Virus record (IMG/VR): IMGVR_UViG_3300024999_000066
Coordinates: 1-64,000 of that record
DNA from: a virus
Direction: 5' to 3' (one strand)
DNA length: 64,000 nt
The notes beneath the pieces were generated by a model. The model was not told where the DNA came from and made no database searches. It was given only the letters and a program-made list of their open reading frames with translations. Shown here piece after piece: positions 2,465 to 31,887 of the stretch. Within the stretch, counting starts at the first letter, position 1. Each line of letters begins with the position of its first letter. The position numbers and the translations under genes are program-made.

Positions 2465-2499
2465 TTAAATTACACAAACAAACCAGAGCGGAGAAATAC

Positions 2500-2727
2500 A
2501 TGAACACTATTAGTATCACTACACAAATTCCACTAGATGACATCGCACGTGGCCTGTCATATCAGCAAGCCCATGACTTGATCACATCAATTGATGAGGA
2601 TCGCTCAGATACAGCCTTCACTGAAGAAGTGATTACAAACCTTATTAATGCTATGTTGGTTGAGTTTGATGGCTTCCCCATTGAACTCAACGATTTCAAA
2701 AAGTCTATAATCAAGTTGTTTGATTAA
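2500..2727 (+). CDS. Hypothetical early protein
   Basis: GGAG SD; directly downstream of a promoter. Confidence 0.65.
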   Translation: MNTISITTQIPLDDIARGLSYQQAHDLITSIDEDRSDTAFTEEVITNLINAMLVEFDGFPIELNDFKKSIIKLFD

Positions 2728-2903
2728 CAGTTGATACATCCTTTGGAGCATCCCACCATGCGCATCACATTCCATCTTGTAACACAATATGCAGATGATT
2801 CTAAAGATATCAAATGTCTAACTTGTGGAGTGGAGGAGGCGACAAGACTTATGTGTAAGCTTCAATGTGTTTGTAAAGGAATGTGTTCTATTTATTTGGA
2901 AGC

Positions 2904-2932
2904 TTGCTAACAACAATTCCACACACTATCAT
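2904..2932 (+). promoter_or_regulatory. sigma70-type promoter
   Basis: TTGCTA-17 nt-TATCAT. Confidence 0.55.
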
Positions 2933-2961
2933 TGCTGTTGATAGCGTTATGAATTTATGAT

Positions 2962-3171
2962 ATGGAGAATGAAATGCATCAACCAATGCAAGGCGCACAA
3001 GCACAAGTAAAACGCTCTAACACTTCCTTCTATGATCAGGGGTGGAACGACTACATCTACGGCATTAAGCCTGACTTCAAGGGCGAATGGTCATACACCT
3101 TGGATTACAAAGACGGTTGGCTCGATTGTCAAGAAGCCACTAAGAAGTATGGGATACAAGAAGAAATCTAA
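2962..3171 (+). CDS. Hypothetical early protein
   Basis: ORF with SD; repeated 'YxxGWxD' motif. Confidence 0.6.
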   Translation: MENEMHQPMQGAQAQVKRSNTSFYDQGWNDYIYGIKPDFKGEWSYTLDYKDGWLDCQEATKKYGIQEEI

Positions 3172-3183
3172 AGGCGAATAAAT

Positions 3184-3489
3184 ATGAACTTCTTTGAAGG
3201 TTCCTATTACAAGCTACAGAAAGATTACTATGAGCACATTAAGCTTGAATGCACGTATGTGGAAGACAACACCGTGTGGTTTGTACAAGAATCACCTTTT
3301 CGTTTTGTTGAACCTACTGCAAACTATAAGCTCAACAAGAAGAACAATAAACTTTATAAGTTGAATAGTGCTTTTAGTTCATGGGACACAATCGAGAACA
3401 CATTGTCTGAATATGGGGCTGAAGACATTTGGAGCAAGAGGGCAGGGGTAGAGAGCTATCATTATGATGGCTTGGGAAAAGGAGATTAA
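3184..3489 (+). CDS. Hypothetical early protein
   Basis: ORF in operon with AAGG SD. Confidence 0.6.
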   Translation: MNFFEGSYYKLQKDYYEHIKLECTYVEDNTVWFVQESPFRFVEPTANYKLNKKNNKLYKLNSAFSSWDTIENTLSEYGAEDIWSKRAGVESYHYDGLGKGD

Positions 3490-3490
3490 C

Positions 3491-3808
3491 ATGAGCTGGT
3501 CACACTGTGGTACAGATAGACAAGGTAGACTGATTGGTTATGCACATGAAGCAGTGTGTGACCATGAAGGCTGTAACAAAGTTATTGACAGAGGTTTGTC
3601 TTATGCTTGTGGTGGTATGCATGGCGAAGATGAACATAGCTGTGACAAGTACTTCTGTTCAGAACACCTTGAGTGGACACTTGACTTAGATGATGAGTAT
3701 AAGAATGTCTGTGAAGAGTGTATGGTACGTCTTACGACTTCTGGTGATTATGCTTTGAATGTTGAAGATTGGGTGATTCGTAAGCTAGAACGACCTATTA
3801 CAGATTAG
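3491..3808 (+). CDS. Conserved Cys/His-rich hypothetical phage protein
   Basis: AAGGAG SD; 'GRLIGY...CDHEGC...IDRGLSYACGGMHG...C..YFC..H' Zn-binding pattern. Confidence 0.65.
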   Translation: MSWSHCGTDRQGRLIGYAHEAVCDHEGCNKVIDRGLSYACGGMHGEDEHSCDKYFCSEHLEWTLDLDDEYKNVCEECMVRLTTSGDYALNVEDWVIRKLERPITD

Positions 3809-4675: not shown

Positions 4676-4872
4676 ACCCTTACTGAAACGAACAACGGAG
4701 CAAGACGAAATGACCTACAATAAATTCTATGTGTTCTTTGAAGATGGTTCTTCAATCGCTACTGAGTATCCAGAAGACTGGACCTTAGCGGATGTGGCGG
4801 CTAGTAACAATGTCCATCCTGATTCTGTGATGGGTCCATATCCAGTCGTCGAATAGGACTAGTTCTGAAATC

Positions 4873-25987: not shown

Positions 25988-26194
25988 GTGAAATGCAGAT
26001 GCTGCAATATTGAGATGCTTTGGCGTGAATTCAGGATGCTGCAAGATGATGGGTCTGAAGAAGACATGTGTTCCAGTTGCCTGAACATCGTCTATTATCC
26101 AGAATATTGTGAGCCTCCACATTACGCTTTTTCCGATATAACTGAGATGGCTGTTCCTTTCATTGTAACTCCACCAAAGAAAGTTGAATATTAG
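25988..26194 (+). CDS. Small Zn-finger-like protein
   Basis: GAGG SD, GTG start; CxCC...CxxC. Confidence 0.55.
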   Translation: MKCRCCNIEMLWREFRMLQDDGSEEDMCSSCLNIVYYPEYCEPPHYAFSDITEMAVPFIVTPPKKVEY

Positions 26195-26261
26195 CTTGAC
26201 AACGTTATATTATTACTTTAATATATTATGACCGTGGGTTAACGGTAATTTTATATATCTA

Positions 26262-26336
26262 GCGGATATAACTCAGAGGCAGAGTGTCAGCCTTCCAAGC
26301 TGTTCGTCGGGATTTCGAAATTCCCTATCCGCTCCA
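26262..26336 (+). tRNA. tRNA-Gly (anticodon TCC)
   Basis: Acceptor GCGGATA/TATCCGC, D-arm ACTC/GAGT, anticodon loop CTTCCAA, T-loop TTCGAAA, encoded CCA; T-stem closing pair is non-canonical. Confidence 0.9.
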
Positions 26337-26384
26337 GTTTCACCCCAACACGAAGAATCAATTCTAGAAAGTTGGGTTTCTCCC

Positions 26385-26507
26385 GCTGGCTCATCTCTCC
26401 TTCCAGCACTTAAGCGTGTAGAGTTTCTCCTCCTTTATTGCGCTATTGACCTTGAGCAACTTGTTAACTGCCTCTCCTCAGAATAACGAGTTACACCAAC
26501 AGGGTCA
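26385..26507 (+). ncRNA. Three tandem hairpins with UCUCCU (anti-SD) loops; candidate sRNA
   Basis: Stems GCTGG/CCAGC, AGCGTGTAGAG/CTTTATTGCGCT, TGACCTTG..AACTTGTTA/TAACGAGTT..CAGGGTCA; G-U pairs favour the + strand. Confidence 0.55.
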
Positions 26508-26585
26508 TTTCTAAATAATCTTGTAACTCTTCAGTTATAATGCCAGTAAGCTGGTCAGGATTATTTAGAAAGTATTATTTCTCAT

Positions 26586-26671
26586 GTGTTCTAATAGCTT
26601 AATTCAGGTCGCTCCTGATTGGAAGAGCAAGCATATGAGGCTAGTGTAAGTTCGAATCTTACTTAGTTCAC
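26586..26671 (+). ncRNA. Degenerate tRNA-like element
   Basis: T-arm GTAAG-TTCGAAT-CTTAC; D-stem GCTT/GAGC with an inserted hairpin; short anticodon stem; no CCA. Confidence 0.4.
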
Positions 26672-26705
26672 AGCAGAAATATTATTTATAAATAGGTAAA
26701 CACAA

Positions 26706-27122
26706 ATGGCTGGTCCAACTAAAGACAAGCAAACAGCAGCACAGAAAGCTCATCGTTTTGATGGCGAGAAAAGCAATCGTAACACTAAGGGCAATTCCAA
26801 GGTTCGTATCAATAAATCAAAATTGCGTGTTCTTGCAGAGAAGCTGCTTGAGCGTCAAGATATTGCATTAGAGTTGGTCGATAAGAGTCTTGCCGGAAAA
26901 GAAACTAATCCAGAAAGTACTGCCAGTGCTAAATGGGTGCTCAACTCAATCGTCAGTGTGATCAAAGCAGCCTCTGCTGAAGAGCTTGGATCGTTCAATG
27001 CTCGTCTCAAAGGTAAGCGTGATGATGAACCTGAAGAACAAACTCCTGCGGAAATCAGCAAAGAATTGAAGCCACGTCTTAGTCTGGTCTACGTTGACCC
27101 AGAGGACCAAGACGACGAATGA
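26706..27122 (+). CDS. Putative terminase small subunit
   Basis: Basic N-terminus 'RFDGEKSNRNTKG', helical core, short beta/acidic C-terminus; upstream of terL. Confidence 0.45.
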   Translation: MAGPTKDKQTAAQKAHRFDGEKSNRNTKGNSKVRINKSKLRVLAEKLLERQDIALELVDKSLAGKETNPESTASAKWVLNSIVSVIKAASAEELGSFNARLKGKRDDEPEEQTPAEISKELKPRLSLVYVDPEDQDDE

Positions 27123-27264
27123 TGTAACCCATAAGTCACATATACTAAACATTATCTTCTAAATGTTATATTTAGTGGACAATATATGGGAATTATACTA
27201 GATTATTTGAATTACTATAATCGGTCTATAGTCGTCTATAATTATATATATATATATAAAAGAA

Positions 27265-27691
27265 TTTACAGGGCACAGCGGAGAATCTAAGACGCTGATC
27301 CGGCAAGATTGGAAGGCTTGTTCCTTTGTTAAGCTGACGAAGGATAACGGTGCATAATTCCCAGTGGGCATGTTGGTATGGAATGACCTTAAAATGGTCT
27401 GAGTTGGTTCGACTCCAACCCCCTTGGGTGAAGATGAAGTGAGTACATCCCCTGTAAACCTAACTAAGCTTCGGCCTAGTATCTTCAAGTAAGTCCTAGT
27501 TCCTTGAAGAAAGCTTACTAAACCAACTAGTAAGTGTAATACCATTTCATGAAGAACAATACTTTCAACGTTTGTTGAAACCTTAGTGGATGGTGAAATG
27601 TCTACCCGAAAGGGCGTGGAGAGACTGAGTAAATCTTGTGCTCAGAGAGTTGTCAGGTCAGGTTAAGATTGTGGACGCTGACACAAGTATT
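27265..27691 (+). ncRNA. Large multi-domain structured RNA candidate with embedded tRNA-like module
   Basis: Long-range helices 27265-73/27450-58 and 27558-64/27685-91; more than 10 internal hairpins including cUUCGg and GAAA tetraloops; no credible ORF. Confidence 0.6.
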
Positions 27692-27757
27692 TTATAAACC
27701 ATATTAGAAGTGTGGTTGTGATAAAGCATTCCAAACAACAAATATTAAAGGAATGTA

Positions 27758-28600
27758 ATGAGTGTATACAAGCTACAAACTACAAGTTGGATTAACTTAT
27801 CTACCTTATCTTCAATTGATATAACACTCAGCAGCGTAAAAGTTACAAATCTTAGTAGTGGTACTATATATGTAACAAGATCAGCAACTATTCCAGAACC
27901 TTCGTTTGTAGGTAATCAAGTCTTCCCAAAAGAGACTAGCTCTATTACCAAGGACACACTTCAAACTTGGATTAGGGCGCCATACCTTGGTGCTATTGAC
28001 GTTGAGCCTCTGCTTTCCAATTCCATAGAACCATTTACATCGGTAGACCTACCCTCTGATGTGTGGACATCGGTGAGAGAGGGTTATAGACGGCTTAGGG
28101 TTGATTCAGCACAGACAGGATTCTTTGAGGGAAGGGAGTTTCGCACTTTTAAGGAGCTTAGCATTTCCTCTGGTGCAACTTTGGTGATGAGAATCACAGT
28201 CCCTGTAAATACGATCCTACAGAATGTTAGGCTTTCCTTAGATGCGGGGTCTATCAAACTGCGTACTGTAGTTGGTGGGACTCCAACGGGGGTGTTTGGT
28301 GAAACTCTGCCAACCATCTCTAAAAATACAATGACCGGTGGAGTATTTCCTGCACCACCTATTCCGTTGTATGTTGCTCAGAACACAATTATGTCTGGTG
28401 CAACAGCTTTAACAGGCGGGGTTGACATTGACGTCATCCGCATTGTTGTAGCTAACGCAAGCGGTCAAGCACAGTCAGTGGGTGCAGCGGTAGATGATTC
28501 TCGTGGTGTGGGCCCAGGAACTTACTATTGGATTTTCAATAACTTTGGTTCAGGGACTGCTACAGGTGTGTTCTCAAGTTTTTGGGAAGAGCGTCCTTAA
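27758..28600 (+). CDS. Probable virion structural protein (beta-rich)
   Basis: AAGGA SD; Ser/Thr/Gly/Val-rich; located in the morphogenesis region. Confidence 0.55.
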   Translation: MSVYKLQTTSWINLSTLSSIDITLSSVKVTNLSSGTIYVTRSATIPEPSFVGNQVFPKETSSITKDTLQTWIRAPYLGAIDVEPLLSNSIEPFTSVDLPSDVWTSVREGYRRLRVDSAQTGFFEGREFRTFKELSISSGATLVMRITVPVNTILQNVRLSLDAGSIKLRTVVGGTPTGVFGETLPTISKNTMTGGVFPAPPIPLYVAQNTIMSGATALTGGVDIDVIRIVVANASGQAQSVGAAVDDSRGVGPGTYYWIFNNFGSGTATGVFSSFWEERP

Positions 28601-28671
28601 GTAATTCTGAGAGGCTATTAAAGGATTAGTAGCTTCATATTGAAATTATTTTAAGTTTATTTTGTAAATAC

Positions 28672-28701
28672 TTGACAGAATGACTTTCAGTTTGATATAG
28701 T
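28672..28701 (+). promoter_or_regulatory. sigma70-type promoter
   Basis: TTGACA-18 nt-TATAGT with TGn extension. Confidence 0.6.
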
Positions 28702-28736
28702 TCATCCTCAAGTTTAAGAACTAAGGAGAATTTATT

Positions 28737-29099
28737 GTGAATGAATATAAAGTACTAGTTACAGGTAATGATAGCATTGGCTACAGCTTCATGAAAAATG
28801 TGATTGAGCTGGCCAGTATGGGCGCTACTCTTGAAGAAGGCAAGGTGCCTACAATGCGCTTCCCTTTCTCAGCTTGGATGTATCTCCAGACTGATGAGCT
28901 TATGGAAAGTAAACCAGGGTTTCAGTTCCAGATTATGCAAGAGAACTTTACTAAAGAGCAACTTGATGATATGGATTGGTCAGAATTCAAAGCTGTAGTA
29001 AAGAAAAAGTATGGCATCACAGGTCGTGATCGTACACTTCTTACCAATCAGTATTTGAAAGCAAGTGGTCAAGTAGAATCTTCCAAGGAAGAAAAATAA
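28737..29099 (+). CDS. Hypothetical protein
   Basis: AAGGAG SD, GTG start. Confidence 0.65.
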   Translation: MNEYKVLVTGNDSIGYSFMKNVIELASMGATLEEGKVPTMRFPFSAWMYLQTDELMESKPGFQFQIMQENFTKEQLDDMDWSEFKAVVKKKYGITGRDRTLLTNQYLKASGQVESSKEEK

Positions 29100-29215: not shown

Positions 29216-30181
29216 TTGAATTACCAGAAAATTTATAATGCTTTAGTTGAGAAAGCTAAAGTACGAGGTCTTGATAAAAAGAAACACGATGGTTACTTTG
29301 AAATTCATCATATCCTTCCAAAGTGTTTGGGCGGTAGTGACGACAAAGAAAACTTGGTAATGTTTACTGCAAGAGAGCATTATGTCTCTCACCTACTCCT
29401 CTGGAAAATGAATCCCGGACACGTTGGTCTGTTTACTGCTGCTTTCTTTATGAGTAAGAAGAGATTATTTAAGTTTAGCTCAAAACTTTACGAAGTTTTA
29501 AAGTTAGAGCAAGCCAAACAACTAGCTGAATTCAACTCTACGAACTCTGGGTTTAATAGTCCTGTATTTAAAGATTTGACTGGTGAGGTTAGGGGTAGGC
29601 TAACTGTAGTATCTTTTGAAGATTGGATTTTTCAGAAAAGTGGTACTAGAACATCTACTTGGAATTGTCTTTGTGATTGTGGAAACTCCTTAACATTAGC
29701 GGCAAAATTTCTAACTAAAAAGAGTGGAACACGCTCCTGCGGCTGCGCTCGAGTGGAAAAGATGAAAGCTCATACCGGCGAAAATAATCCATTTTACGGC
29801 AAGAAACACTCACCTGAAACTCTTGAAATACTAAGAGAAAAGGGTAAAGGGAAAGGTGGTTGGAATAAAGGTTTAGTTCGCACTGAAGAGCATAAACGTA
29901 AAGTTTCAGAAGGTTTGAAAGCAAGAAACCGCCCCGCATGGGAAGCTGGAACAGTCATGAATAAAGATGAGCAACTAACTAAATGGTTGATGGCTGACTA
30001 TTATTACGAATTATATCTTACTAATACCACACTAACTTCTGCAAAGTTCACCACTCTGTATAATCGGCTACATAACGATAATTTGCCAGCAAGAGCTTTT
30101 ACTGCAATGCACAGAGAATTTGTTAAAGGTTGGATTCCTTTAGAAGATGAGAGGTGGGTGAAGTTTTCTAAGGGATTCTAA
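29216..30181 (+). CDS. Free-standing HNH homing endonuclease with NUMOD3 repeats
   Basis: 'FEIHHILPKCLGGSDDKENLVMFTAREHYVSHLLL' HNH core; 'NPFYGKKHSPET' and 'RTEEHKRKVSE' NUMOD3 motifs; stop abuts the terL ATG. Confidence 0.88.
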   Translation: MNYQKIYNALVEKAKVRGLDKKKHDGYFEIHHILPKCLGGSDDKENLVMFTAREHYVSHLLLWKMNPGHVGLFTAAFFMSKKRLFKFSSKLYEVLKLEQAKQLAEFNSTNSGFNSPVFKDLTGEVRGRLTVVSFEDWIFQKSGTRTSTWNCLCDCGNSLTLAAKFLTKKSGTRSCGCARVEKMKAHTGENNPFYGKKHSPETLEILREKGKGKGGWNKGLVRTEEHKRKVSEGLKARNRPAWEAGTVMNKDEQLTKWLMADYYYELYLTNTTLTSAKFTTLYNRLHNDNLPARAFTAMHREFVKGWIPLEDERWVKFSKGF

Positions 30182-31887
30182 ATGACAGAACAAAAGAAAC
30201 TTCCGGGGCCGTGTTCATTACGTCAAAGTATGTATATCGCCTCGGAGGCTGACGTAACCTTATTTGGTGGCGCAGCCGCGAGCGGAAAAAGTGAAATCGG
30301 CGTTATTGACTTCCTGAAGTATACAGACATTCCCAATTTCATTGGTGTAATGACACGTCGCACAACACCCCAGCTTAATGGTCCGGGTGGGTTGCTAACT
30401 AAATGTAAGCGTGTATTTAGTCAAGCATATAAACCAGATGAATATACTTGGCGAGCAAAAGATGGTAAGTTCGTGTTCCATGCCAGTGGTGCTGAAATTT
30501 ATCTCAAGCACTTTGAGAATGATGCAGCAGATGTGAACTGGCAAGGTTCTGAAGCGAATCTTTTCTATATCGATGAGGGAACCCAATATACGATGTATAT
30601 GATACAATATATCATGTCTCGTATGCGTAATCCTTCATGCCCGTCAATCAAACCTCACCTCAAAATCACCTGCAATCCAGATGCCGATCACGGCCTCAGA
30701 AAGTGGGTAGAGCCCTACTTGCAAGAAGATGGTACTCCTGACCGTTCAAAAGACGGGATGTTGAGATACTTTTCTTTCATGGATGGTGACTTTGTTTGGG
30801 CTGACACTAAAGAACAACTCCTAGCTGAATACGGTGTAAGAGAGCAAGATGCTCTGTCTTTTACCTTTATTAGTGCTAACGTTTATGACAACAAAATTGT
30901 AGAAGAAGTTAACCCTAAGTATGTTGCTTGGCTTAAAGGTCTTCGCGGAACTGAACGTAAACGGCTCCTAGAAGGGAATTGGTTCGTTCGCGAAAGTGCA
31001 GCAGGATTCATGAAAAAAGAATTCTGTAGTAAGGTTAATTTGTTTGATAAAGAGATTGTGTCTTATTGTCGTGCGTGGGATATAGCAGGTTCGATTCCAT
31101 CGGAAGCACTACCAAATCCCGACTGGACTGCTGGTGTTCTTATTGCTAAGACAAAACAAGGCAGATATATAGTAGTTGATGTAGTTAGATTTCGTGCAAG
31201 GTTTGGCGAAGTTATGGCTAAGATTATTGAAACTGCCAAGTCTGACCCTGAAGGCACACAAATCATTATCCCACAAGAACCCGGACAAGCTGGTAAAGCC
31301 GCTGGGCAGATGATGATTAAAGAACTTCTATCTGATGGATTTTACGCAAGAATGCGTCCATCTAATAAGTCCAAGATAATCAGGTTTCAGCCCTTCGCAG
31401 CAGCAGCAGAAGCTGGTCTTGTTGACTACGTTGAGGCTGATTGGAATGATACATATTTCGACGAGTTGGAAAGTTTTGACGGAAGTCGTAAGAATAAAGA
31501 CGATTTATTAATCTTGGTCGTCTATAAACCCATTGAATTCGGTGGACCTCTCGTAAGAGACAATACCGAGCGAAGCCTAGTGATAGGAACGTGTAACGAC
31601 TATCGAAAGCGCACAGTAATGTGGAAGTGAGTAGAGTAGGGTCAAGTGACCCGAAGCGGTGGGCAAACAAAACTGTTTGAAGATATAGTCTCCTCTGTAC
31701 AGTGATGTGCAGCAGTCGTATACGACTGGATAAGATATAACGAATCTTATTTAAGATGATGCAAGTTGATGCTACAAGCGATTCTTTCATAACTTTAGCT
31801 CAAAGACAAGTTATTCCAAACTTCTCATCCGGCCTACTCTCCGCAAATTTAACTCAATCTAACCCCTTCCTTAATGCAGGAGCTTAA
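30182..31887 (+). CDS. terL: Terminase large subunit, spliced: exon 1 30182-31504 + exon 2 31762-31887 (482 aa)
   Basis: Walker A 'GGAAASGKS', Walker B 'FYIDE', 'CNPD', 'RAWDIA', 'PDWTAG'; splicing restores the nuclease motif KNKDD^QVDATSD; stop abuts the portal ATG. Confidence 0.92.
31505..31761 (+). mobile_element. Group I self-splicing intron (IA2-like, 257 nt, no ORF)
   Basis: P1 GACGAU/GUCGUC with U-G at the 5' splice site; P3 CCCAUUG/CGGUGGG; P4 UUCGGU/ACCGAG; P7 GACUA/UAGUC; J8/7 AAGAUAUAGUC; P7.1, P7.2, P8, P9, P9.1, P9.2; terminal G; P10 CUUG/CAAG. Confidence 0.92.

Follow-up and report, generated by a model that had tools for sequence, protein, structure and literature searches.

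Positions 27259-27697 (+ strand) of the analysed window, a 64,000-nt stretch of a viral genome, encode an evolutionarily conserved folded RNA that belongs to a family of structured phage RNAs absent from Rfam 15. Members were found in about 25 related viral contigs and, in diverged form, in the cultured Pseudomonas phage vB_PsaM_M1. The family has a conserved 3' core of six hairpins (P1-P6), joined by the single-stranded motifs GUAUC, GCCUAG, UCUGGCGG, AAAUGAC, GUGGAGA and AGAG, and a variable 5' domain (P0). P0 can be missing, small (two hairpins), a genuine tRNA-Thr, or, as in the window, a 194-nt domain holding a tRNA-like unit. The RNA nearly always follows the stop codon of a conserved 138-aa gene (p138) and lies in the tRNA island just upstream of the terminase and portal genes of Ounavirinae-like, probably Pseudomonas-infecting myoviruses. 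Some relatives lack it.

The features of the region are as follows (related loci are designated L, and public sequencing runs X, each with a number).
26706-27122 (+), p138, a 138-aa gene with a basic N-terminus and an acidic C-terminus.
27134-27181 (+), a long hairpin just after the p138 stop codon, a separate module and not part of the conserved RNA; look-alike stretches were seen by eye, without statistics, in the gaps of L030, L034 and L043.
27215-27242 (+), repeated CTATAAT-type boxes (27215-27221 and 27235-27242), inferred to be a possible own promoter; L038 has three such boxes before its AAAGAAU, but a consensus promoter scan did not list those of the window.
27259-27265 (+), AAAGAAU, the conserved 5' boundary motif of the family, which overlaps the p138 stop codon in compact members.
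27265-27458 (+), P0, with a closing helix 27265-27273/27450-27458, inner hairpins 27276-27297, 27299-27313, 27316-27353 (apical part 27322-27344) and 27433-27449, and the tRNA-like unit.
27360-27428 (+), the tRNA-like unit, a possible cloverleaf with a 9-bp acceptor-like helix with one U-C mismatch, a small D-arm, a 4-bp arm with loop UUAAAAU and a canonical T-arm, without CCA.
27459-27462 (+), junction CCUA(AC) after P0; other members have NCCA here, inferred to be possibly a vestige of a tRNA 3' end.
27463-27480 (+), P1, a hairpin capped by a UUCG tetraloop and followed by the conserved GUAUC; the helix covaries in the family.
27482-27510 (+), P2, an 8-bp hairpin whose loop carries the family motif CCUAGU; P2 covaries in the family.
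27513-27535 (+), P3, an 8-bp hairpin with loop AACCAAC instead of the family's usual UGGC within UCUGGCGG.
27543-27600 (+), a lineage-specific insert between P3 and P4, absent from compact members, with an outer helix CAUUUCAU/GUGAAAUG and an apical hairpin at 27563-27580; in run X5 all four loop letters 27570-27573 differ while the stem is kept, and 27550 changes U-G to C-G.
27605-27614 (+), P4, a small hairpin with a GAAA loop, preceded by the family motif AAAUG(U)C at 27596-27602.
27616-27623 (+), GUGGAGAG, the most conserved single-stranded motif of the family.
27625-27645 (+), P5, a 7-bp hairpin with the conserved loop AAUCUUG; all 7 pairs change on both sides in the family, and in X5 positions 27628 and 27630 change while pairing is kept.
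27651-27683 (+), P6, a 6+3-bp hairpin with a bulged G and a conserved purine-rich loop (AGG...GUG), 94% identical over 50 nt to L038; all 9 pairs change on both sides in the family.
27684-27697 (+), an A/U-rich tail (CAAGUAUUUUAUAA), conserved in kind after P6 and not called as a terminator.

The observation in the initial annotation, a folded non-coding RNA with an embedded tRNA-like domain, held. All of the hairpins it listed are present in the sequence at the stated places, and the segment is richer in G+C than its flanks (0.465 at 27300-27499 against 0.305 and 0.315). It had also been described as free of ORFs. No + strand ORF of 40 aa or more lies in 27123-27757, while a mechanical 115-aa ORF lies on the - strand at 27198-27545, with no Pfam match and no tblastx relative among 47 loci. 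Folding energy alone is only modestly unusual, with z -2.37 on the + strand (2 of 100 shuffles as good) and z -1.85 on the - strand, and the evidence for more than chance comes from comparison. Two points were not confirmed. The helix said to close a second domain (27558-27564/27685-27691) has no counterpart in the family and is not in the minimum-energy fold, and the cloverleaf is not the minimum-energy fold of the isolated unit in the window's own sequence.

A covariance model built from two compact relatives hit window 27460-27686 at 43.7 bits (E 1.7e-12) over model positions 1-163, the full model length, and this was the only hit in the 64 kb. P1, P5, P6, GUAUC, GUGGAGA and AGAG were aligned, whereas P2 to P4 were skipped by local jumps, so that P2-P4 in the window rest on our reading and on single-sequence folds. 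The model gave 17 hits in 34 sources and 13 hits in 12 of 25 further contigs that were found by a motif pattern. The remaining pattern hits, nine from freshwater samples (L068, L073, L076, L078, L082, L091, L093, L095 and L097) and four others (L077, L085, L086 and L088), did not match the model. A genome search with the same model on the window's own genome returned no match, at odds with the direct searches, which we attribute, provisionally, to the first-look step of that search. A metagenome scan with the family pattern gave at least 119 stretches; the 80 that were searched contained 8 hits in 7 loci, most of them apparently viral contigs already in the set, and this is therefore not independent support. 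The model found nothing credible in the 19-kb loci of the cultured relatives phiPMW, Kremar and vB_PpS_SYP (best E 0.17).

Across 21 members, 97.4% of 784 helix cells pair and 38 of 41 pairs change on both sides. The covariation score is 0.864 against at most 0.121 when partners are slid, and 0 of 500 shuffles reach it; a 17-sequence set gave a similar result. These alignments were fitted to our own model, which favours the structure, but a MAFFT-only alignment with RNAalifold independently recovered P1, P3 and P6, with 11 of 24 pairs compensated. G-U cells outnumber A-C cells 83 to 5, indicating that it is the + strand that folds. A pairwise scan of unpaired columns for long-range or pseudoknot covariation gave only trivial U/C-G pairings.

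Closing helices of P0 covary in ten members. Window 27269-27464 is 96-98% identical in contigs of four other studies, while the adjacent gene is 86-87% identical, and all substitutions that we could see keep or create pairs or lie in loops. In runs X5 and X6, 27423 C>A turns the mismatch of the acceptor-like helix into U-A, and 27373 T>A in all four runs removes a competing helix, so that natural variants favour the cloverleaf, although it is not the minimum-energy fold of the window's sequence. The unit has a possible four-arm layout and a 5-bp T-stem with loop UUCGACU, but was not recognised by tRNA detectors. ARAGORN called only tRNA-Gly at 26262-26336 in the window, 0.9 kb upstream of the RNA, and no RF00005 hit was obtained on 27360-27428 at E<=10; the only match was tRNA-Sec at 17.1 bits against a cut-off of 47 (E 6.9). 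The unit also differs from a tRNA in its 9-bp acceptor-like helix, its 4-bp anticodon-like stem, the lack of CCA and of an 8-9 linker, and in that both ends run on into a larger helix-closed domain. A decayed tRNA-Pro was considered and dropped, as only the T-loop region aligns. In L090, by contrast, a true tRNA-Thr sits exactly in the P0 slot (ARAGORN; Rfam 48.2 bits). tRNAs also adjoin the RNA elsewhere: tRNA-Pro starts 5 nt after P6 in vB_PsaM_M1, and L047 and L048 carry a tRNA-Met and L046 an Rfam tRNA right after the RNA. Exact-pattern scans for the window's P0 found only unrelated tRNAs with a T-arm 21-mer, nothing in viral contigs with an 18-mer and nothing in metagenome contigs with a 28-mer; relatives of this P0 were seen only as Logan contigs.

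Direct DNA similarity was of little use, since the conservation is structural and modular. Blastn of the gap, of a compact member and of a p138 homologue against 50,697 GenBank phage records gave no match; blastn of the gap gave only three short pieces among 47 loci and one 50-nt piece among 23 related genomes. Tblastx of the gap found no protein-level relic of the genes that relatives carry there. The p138 gene has 197 homologues at E<=0.001 among 239 candidates, and a homologue lies upstream of the RNA in 10 of 12 loci that were found by the RNA pattern alone; the window shows the same order on the same strand. L037, L039, L040 and L045 have p138 but no such RNA, suggesting an accessory nature. 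No Pfam or PHROG family matched p138, a profile against PDB sequences gave nothing below E 0.3, and the Atlas gave only unnamed viral clusters and a weak lead to DUF5681 (score 0.91). The suggestion that p138 is terS therefore remains unproven.

The interpretation in the initial annotation, a compact relative of GOLLD and ROOL or a new class, was partly supported. One large non-coding structured RNA with an embedded tRNA-like unit, next to other RNA genes and outside every Rfam family, agrees with the data, and a new class is the better of the two options; homology to GOLLD or ROOL was not supported. The proposed division into three parts should be redrawn. The first domain is a lineage-specific expansion of P0, the linker hairpins and most of the second domain together form P1-P6, and 27543-27600 is the lineage-specific insert. 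Rfam was searched at gathering on the whole window and on 19 related loci, at E<=10 on 26000-29000, at E<=5 on L004, L033 and L065 (compact members and vB_PsaM_M1), and at E<=1 on five loci, and nothing lay on the RNA except tRNAs beside it. Neither GOLLD (RF01998) nor ROOL (RF03087) matched in the first four of these searches. On the window and 26000-29000 there was also no match to tmRNA, Y RNA or the phi29-type pRNA, and ARAGORN reported no tmRNA. Bacterial Y RNAs (YrlA-type) combine a tRNA-like module opened at the anticodon side with a Ro-binding stem, usually near a Ro60 (TROVE) gene. The unit described here has normal tRNA strand order, and no TROVE domain was detected in the 89.9-kb genome, whereas the control genomes gave hits. 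A likeness of the P6 loop to T-box and SRP RNAs found no Rfam support.

The resemblance to GOLLD is one of context and layout. GOLLD is phage-encoded, elaborately folded, near tRNA genes and sometimes contains tRNAs (bioRxiv 10.1101/2024.12.08.627333), and here there is likewise a conserved core, a variable 5' part and tRNAs or tRNA-like units in or next to the RNA. GOLLD was dispensable for phage production in one prophage (PMC7567579), and some relatives here lack the RNA. However, the RNA shares no sequence or structure with GOLLD or ROOL, hosts and motifs differ from those of GOLLD, there is no evidence of multimers, and the core is about 165 nt, as are compact members, and the window RNA about 430 nt, against more than 800 nt for many GOLLD members; the vB_PsaM_M1 form may reach about 700 nt, as judged by eye. 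ROOL is found in phages and prophages, often near tRNA islands, and has a complex fold with no known protein partner or function (bioRxiv 10.1101/2024.12.08.627333); it is larger, and no pseudoknots were detected in the present family. The 3' external transcribed spacer of a bacterial tRNA operon is reported to act as an sRNA sponge; it too lies directly next to a tRNA in one transcript and is presumably set free by tRNA processing, and in L090 the core is the 3' trailer of the tRNA. Those spacers are short and little structured, whereas the core has six covarying hairpins. Literature searches found no description of this RNA, although single hairpins or pieces may be listed without a name among the 8,495 candidates of 29-151 nt, tRNA-like ones included, catalogued from IMG/VR v3 (PMC10690425), whose supplementary alignments we could not inspect; the full architecture (P0 plus P1-P6, about 165 to more than 430 nt) exceeds that size range.

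The family, its conserved core and variable P0, its absence from Rfam and its position after p138 are established by the analysis. The following is inferred, and we consider it only somewhat more likely than not. The RNA would be transcribed with p138 and the neighbouring tRNAs and cut out as a stable non-coding RNA by the host's tRNA- and mRNA-processing enzymes, with RNase P or RNase Z acting at the tRNA or tRNA-like units and RNase E at the A/U-rich boundary motifs. It would then act in trans as a folded RNA particle, alone or with the 138-aa protein, as an accessory element of the same general kind as GOLLD and ROOL. Expression, transcript ends, stability, processing, binding and function are all part of this inference, since the only runs that hold the stretch well are DNA contigs, while the RNA runs X17-X20 share only 0.04 of its words and say nothing about expression.

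A cis-acting element of the mRNA remains possible but is less likely. It might be a structured 3' UTR that stabilises or regulates the p138 message, or a leader that modifies RNA polymerase or ribosomes for the late packaging and structural operon downstream, for example processive antitermination of the put-RNA kind. The constant position at or near the p138 stop codon and the overlap of the boundary motif with it in compact forms would fit, and the RNA lies at the border between the replication/tRNA region and the terminase-portal genes, all on one strand. In L004, L041 and L005 it ends about 40 nt before the next start codon with no obvious promoter between. However, the downstream gene differs between members (the 280-aa gene, a 100-aa ORF plus a GDSL-lipase-like ORF, tRNAs, and others), and some members have promoter-like sequence, as judged by eye, between the RNA and the next gene. 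The distance from the p138 stop varies from 0 to about 135 nt, or about 30 nt plus a roughly 400-nt P0 in vB_PsaM_M1, and the four p138-bearing relatives above lack the RNA. Six hairpins with UUCG/GNRA caps and fused tRNAs are also more elaborate than known antitermination RNAs. A stimulator of stop-codon read-through was rejected because the frame after the p138 stop closes after 11 codons in L004 (read by eye) and the spacing varies.

A more speculative and unlikely reading, which the data do not rule out, is a third, smaller class of ornate phage RNA alongside GOLLD and ROOL, defined by covalent fusion of a tRNA or tRNA mimic to a six-hairpin body. The tRNA-shaped domain would recruit the host's tRNA machinery (RNase P, modification enzymes, perhaps the ribosome or a tRNA-targeting defence nuclease), and the core would fold into, or assemble as, a particle that holds or shields tRNAs during infection, possibly together with the 138-aa protein.

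A sponge for a CsrA/RsmA-type regulator of the host, or a Shine-Dalgarno mimic binding ribosomes or the CU-rich hairpin loops encoded upstream of p138, seems improbable. Such a role would depend on the GGA-containing motifs (GUGGAGA and the GGAAAGAC loop). GUGGAGA is the best conserved single-stranded motif, many members have GGAAAGAC in the P4 loop, Rsm sponges occur in Pseudomonas, the probable host, and the region 26331-26590 with the CU-rich loops is also conserved in relatives. However, only one GGA motif is universal, P4 loops are GUAAG, GCAAG or GAAA in several members, the window included, and the GGA in P6 lies within a covarying helix and is not conserved, whereas Rsm sponges carry many GGA loops.

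A packaging-related element, either a pac site or DNA structure recognised by terminase or a prohead RNA like that of phi29, is very unlikely. The position upstream of the terminase large subunit and portal genes and the weak DUF5681 lead for p138 as a small terminase subunit would fit. However, the G-U bias and the UUCG/GNRA caps point to RNA folding and not to duplex DNA recognition, there is no Rfam pRNA match, and relatives with the same packaging genes lack the element. A separate conserved gene of roughly 120 aa directly abuts terL and is the better terS candidate.

A decayed tRNA cluster plus a mosaic of unrelated hairpins (terminators, promoters, recombination modules) that has no function as a unit and only looks like one RNA is suggested by the 40-200-nt modules shared in different combinations after p138, by the tRNA island at this site in relatives, by the failure of the tRNA-like unit with both tRNA detectors and by the absence of parts in some members (P1 in L032, L035 and L003; P4-P6 in L047), but is already largely refuted, since the six hairpins keep their order, spacing and loop motifs in about 25 contigs with the compensatory changes given above, a single model finds them as one unit, and P0 of the window is more conserved than the neighbouring protein gene.

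GOLLD and ROOL have solved structures but no known function, and a smaller, independently evolved RNA with the same genomic habit, in which the 5' domain is a true tRNA, a tRNA mimic, a stub or nothing, offers a more tractable comparison. The diverged copy in a cultured phage, vB_PsaM_M1 on Pseudomonas sp. ZM01, means that expression, processing, deletion and structure can be tested directly. This copy lies in the unannotated stretch between the + strand 126-aa ORF and tRNA-Pro, at an estimated 2872-3571 of L065. The family also shows that phage tRNA islands hold conserved RNA genes that standard annotation misses: in the GenBank record of vB_PsaM_M1 the region carries no RNA annotation, and the partner gene is replaced by a call on the opposite strand.

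The structured RNA described here lies within an IMG/VR virus record of 89,919 bp, in a 635-nt gap without any + strand ORF. The genes and elements around the gap are as follows.
26706-27122, a 138-aa gene (hereafter p138), upstream of the gap
27758-28600, a 280-aa gene, downstream of the gap
further downstream, a 120-aa gene
29216-30181, a homing endonuclease gene, which abuts the terminase ORF
31449-31712, a group I intron (75.8 bits), which interrupts the large terminase gene terL
further downstream, the portal gene

Related loci contained up to two such introns. The portal was 50% identical to that of Pseudomonas phage vB_PsaM_M1, a member of the Ounavirinae, and that phage and other relatives carry a tRNA island at the same place. 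The observation made in the initial annotation held. Every hairpin that it listed was present, and the G+C content was higher than in the flanks. Folding of the single sequence was only mildly better than that of shuffled sequences, with z -2.37 on the + strand and -1.85 on the - strand.

Searches with Rfam gave nothing on the segment except a sub-threshold tRNA-Sec match on the tRNA-like cloverleaf, and the cloverleaf was not called by ARAGORN. No relative was found by blastn in GenBank phages, and only three short pieces were found in 47 related loci and one 50-nt piece in 23 related genomes. Relatives have real tRNAs at this site. On these data a lineage-specific spacer with a decayed tRNA was first favored, a reading that was corrected by the comparisons below.

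Contigs from four other studies (runs X5, X6, X8 and X9) were compared with positions 26650-28100. The stretch 27269-27464/27470 was 98.0% identical in X8 (4 differences in 202 nt) and 96.9% in X9 (6 in 196), 27269-27492 was 96.0% identical in X5 (9 differences plus one insertion in 224 nt), and 27269-27623 was 96.1% identical in X6 (14 differences plus one gap in 355 nt). The p138 gene pieces in the same contigs were 86-87% identical (26 of 195 in X8; 10 of 75 in X5 and X6; 13 of 90 in X9). The common start at 27269 is an artefact, because 27233-27268 was skipped as a repeat. The substitutions were mapped on the fold, leaving out three of the 4 differences in X8 and 2 of the 6 in X9. The changes 27339 G>A and 27340 A>G swap G-U and A-U in hairpin 27322-27344, and 27423 C>A turns the U-C mismatch of the acceptor-like helix into U-A. 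The change 27434 A>G, together with 27448 T>A and an inserted C, reshapes but can keep hairpin 27433-27449, while 27373 T>A, seen in all four runs, removes a helix that competes with the T-arm. The remaining changes were located in loops or junctions. Further downstream in X5, 27550 and 27630 change U-G to C-G, 27628 changes A-U to G-U, all four loop letters 27570-27573 differ over an unchanged stem, and 27535 loses a terminal G-U.

An all-against-all comparison of the gaps after p138 showed a mosaic of shared 40-200-nt modules. When these were read side by side, one architecture was revealed, for which we use our own labels. It begins with AAAGAAU at or after the p138 stop codon, followed by an optional helix-closed domain (P0) and a junction of the type NCC(A/U)AAC. 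Then follow hairpin P1, capped by UUCG, GAAA, GCAA or CUCG; GUAUC; P2, with GCCUAG in its loop; P3, whose apex is UCUGGCGG; AAAUGAC; P4, with a GNRA-like or GGAAAGAC loop; GUGGAGA; P5, with loop AAUCUUG; AGAG; P6, with a conserved purine-rich loop; and an A/U-rich tail. A MAFFT-only alignment of seven compact members, folded with RNAalifold, recovered P1, P3 and P6 on its own, with 11 of 24 pairs compensated.

A covariance model was built from two nearly identical compact members with a hand-drawn six-hairpin structure (163 positions, 41 pairs). It gave 17 hits in 34 sources. One of them was window 27460-27686 at 43.7 bits (E 1.7e-12) over the full model length, and this was the only hit in the window. 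However, a genome search with the same model reported no match in the window's own genome, although cmsearch detected the element three times, and this discrepancy between search methods should be kept in mind when empty results are read. A motif pattern found 35 stretches in the viral collection, and of the 25 that lay on new contigs, 12 loci gave 13 hits at E<=0.01. Nine viral contigs (L068, L073, L076, L078, L082, L091, L093, L095 and L097; L numbers denote viral loci), several with closely similar sample numbers, matched the motif pattern with the same 38-nt span but did not match the model, which reflects either chance or a different element that shares the motifs.

On model-fitted alignments the helices were overwhelmingly supported. 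With 17 sequences, 97.5% of cells were paired and 37 of 41 pairs changed on both sides, with a score of 0.667 against at most 0.090 when partners were slid. With 21 sequences, 97.4% of cells were paired and 38 of 41 pairs changed on both sides, with a score of 0.864 against at most 0.121, and 0 of 500 shuffles were as high. These alignments lean towards the model, but the slid controls and the independent MAFFT-only result limit that concern. G-U cells numbered 83 against 5 A-C, so the + strand, which is the strand of the genes, is the one that folds.

In the window, cmsearch aligned P1, GUAUC, GUGGAGAG, P5, AGAG and P6 and jumped over 61 and 66 nt in between. By eye and by local folds, those stretches hold P2, P3, an insert and P4. 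The elements of the window are as follows.
27463-27480, + strand, P1 (aligned by cmsearch)
27482-27510, + strand, an enlarged P2 whose loop carries CCUAGU (by eye and local folds)
27513-27535, + strand, P3 with a different loop (by eye and local folds)
27543-27600, + strand, a lineage-specific insert (by eye and local folds)
27605-27614, + strand, a small P4 preceded by AAAUGUC (by eye and local folds)
27616-27623, + strand, GUGGAGAG (aligned by cmsearch)
27625-27645, + strand, P5 (aligned by cmsearch)
27651-27683, + strand, P6 (aligned by cmsearch)

The interpretation given in the initial annotation was therefore supported only in part. Its linker hairpins are P1-P3, most of its domain 2 is P4-P6, and its domain 1 is P0. 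The helix that it proposed to close domain 2 pairs the insert with the tail and has no family support.

The closing helix of P0 begins right after AAAGAAU and covaries. The strand pairs are UUUACAGGG/CCCUGUAAA in the window, UUUGUCUG/CAGACAAA in L033 and L071, UUUACCUG/CAGGUAAA in L046, UUCUCUG/CAGAGAA in L030, UUUGAGG/CCUCAAA in L044, UUUGUAG/CUACAAA in L047, UUUCCCUUG/CAAGGGAA in L036, UUUCCAUUG/CAAUGGAAA in L031, and UUUAUCUG/CAGAUAAA in L070. The content of P0 varies. It contains nothing in L004, L041 and L042, two small hairpins in L033, L030, L071, L046 and L070, and about 400 nt in vB_PsaM_M1. In L090 it is a tRNA-Thr, called by ARAGORN and by Rfam at 48.2 bits, which ends where the core begins. 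In L005 and L084 a 7-8-bp acceptor-like helix followed by UCCA was seen by eye, but neither was called by ARAGORN or Rfam.

tRNAs also follow the RNA directly. A tRNA-Pro lies 5 nt after P6 in vB_PsaM_M1, and a tRNA-Met lies after P3 in L047 and overlaps the end of the gap in L048. In L046 (4640-4800) two tRNA-shaped genes follow P6. One of them (4723-4797) reached 38.5 bits on the Rfam tRNA model but was missed by ARAGORN, and the other, seen by eye, has a 7-bp acceptor stem and GCCA but an odd anticodon arm. This phage group seems rich in non-canonical tRNAs. The cloverleaf of the window (27360-27428) thus fits a family habit of carrying tRNAs or their relics. It is not itself a detectable tRNA by ARAGORN or Rfam, and in the window's own sequence a competing fold is slightly more stable. 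The junction after P0 may be a vestigial CCA end, which is our inference. A second tRNA-like element at 26588-26670 scored 26.4 bits on the Rfam tRNA model, just under the cut-off of 29. It has a 25-nt insertion in the D-loop and a shortened anticodon region, and was not called by ARAGORN.

The RNA is tied to p138. A p138 homologue lies just upstream in 10 of 12 loci found by the RNA pattern alone, down to 33% identity. Among 19 p138 loci, four lack the RNA (L037, L039, L040 and L045). In L037 and L039 the sequence after AAAGAAU resumes, by eye, with what follows the RNA in L034, which looks like a clean absence. In vB_PsaM_M1 (OP714164, locus L065) an unannotated + strand ORF of 126 aa at 2465-2845 is a distant p138 homologue (27% identity, E 1e-4 in a pairwise test), and about 700 nt after it appear to be a large form of the RNA, ending 5 nt before tRNA-Pro, in a region spanning 2465-3571. 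The GenBank record instead annotates a - strand CDS over the 3' part of this ORF (locus 2687-3151), which is likely a mis-annotation.

A total of 197 homologues of p138 were detected at E<=0.001 among 239 candidates, one of them named as from Pseudomonas sp. Searches of Pfam, PHROG and PDB found no relative of p138, and the Atlas gave only a weak lead to DUF5681. The gene after the RNA varies. Between the RNA and the 280-aa gene, the close relatives L003, L004, L005 and L041 carry a 100-119-aa ORF and a 462-aa ORF with a GDSL-lipase-like domain (Pfam E 3e-9) that the window lacks, and the gap is a hot spot for gain and loss of genes. The model found nothing credible in phiPMW, Kremar or vB_PpS_SYP.

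The element is not GOLLD, ROOL, tmRNA, Y RNA, pRNA or any other Rfam 15 family. The genome has no Ro60/TROVE gene. The element is not a coding relic, and it is not a typical Rsm/Csr sponge, because only one GGA motif is universal. What the analysis establishes is a conserved, independently folding multi-hairpin RNA on the + strand, fused or adjacent to tRNAs, linked to p138 and dispensable in some relatives. From this we infer, from sequence alone, a stable non-coding RNA that would be co-transcribed with p138 and the tRNAs, be released by tRNA and mRNA processing enzymes, and act in trans as a folded particle, perhaps with p138. A search of sequencing runs returned DNA contigs plus RNA runs with negligible shares, so that expression, processing and action in trans all remain part of this inference, which we consider only somewhat more likely than not. 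A cis-acting mRNA element is the main rival, possible but clearly less likely.

The closest known elements are GOLLD and ROOL, which are phage or prophage RNAs, often near tRNA islands and of unknown function (bioRxiv 10.1101/2024.12.08.627333). GOLLD has a conserved 3' and a variable 5' region, and tRNAs are sometimes found in its linker. The present family shares that context and layout, but has no homology with either and is much smaller. No description of it was found in the literature, although pieces may sit unnamed among the 8,495 IMG/VR candidates of PMC10690425. We regard it as a new family, whereas the kind of element to which it belongs was already known, and it is of real interest because a cultured phage carries a copy.

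Further modules were located on either side of p138. The non-coding stretch 26331-26590 between tRNA-Gly and p138, which holds the hairpins with CU-rich loops pointed out in the initial annotation, is itself conserved at 70-91% identity in at least ten related contigs. It is probably a second conserved RNA module flanking p138, and its loops are, by eye, complementary to the GGAGA of the GUGGAGA motif. A long hairpin right after the p138 stop (27134-27181) is, by eye, shared with L030, L034 and L043. It is followed by repeated CTATAAT-type boxes (27215-27242), of which L038 has three before its copy of the RNA (by eye). These may be a terminator or stabiliser and a promoter.
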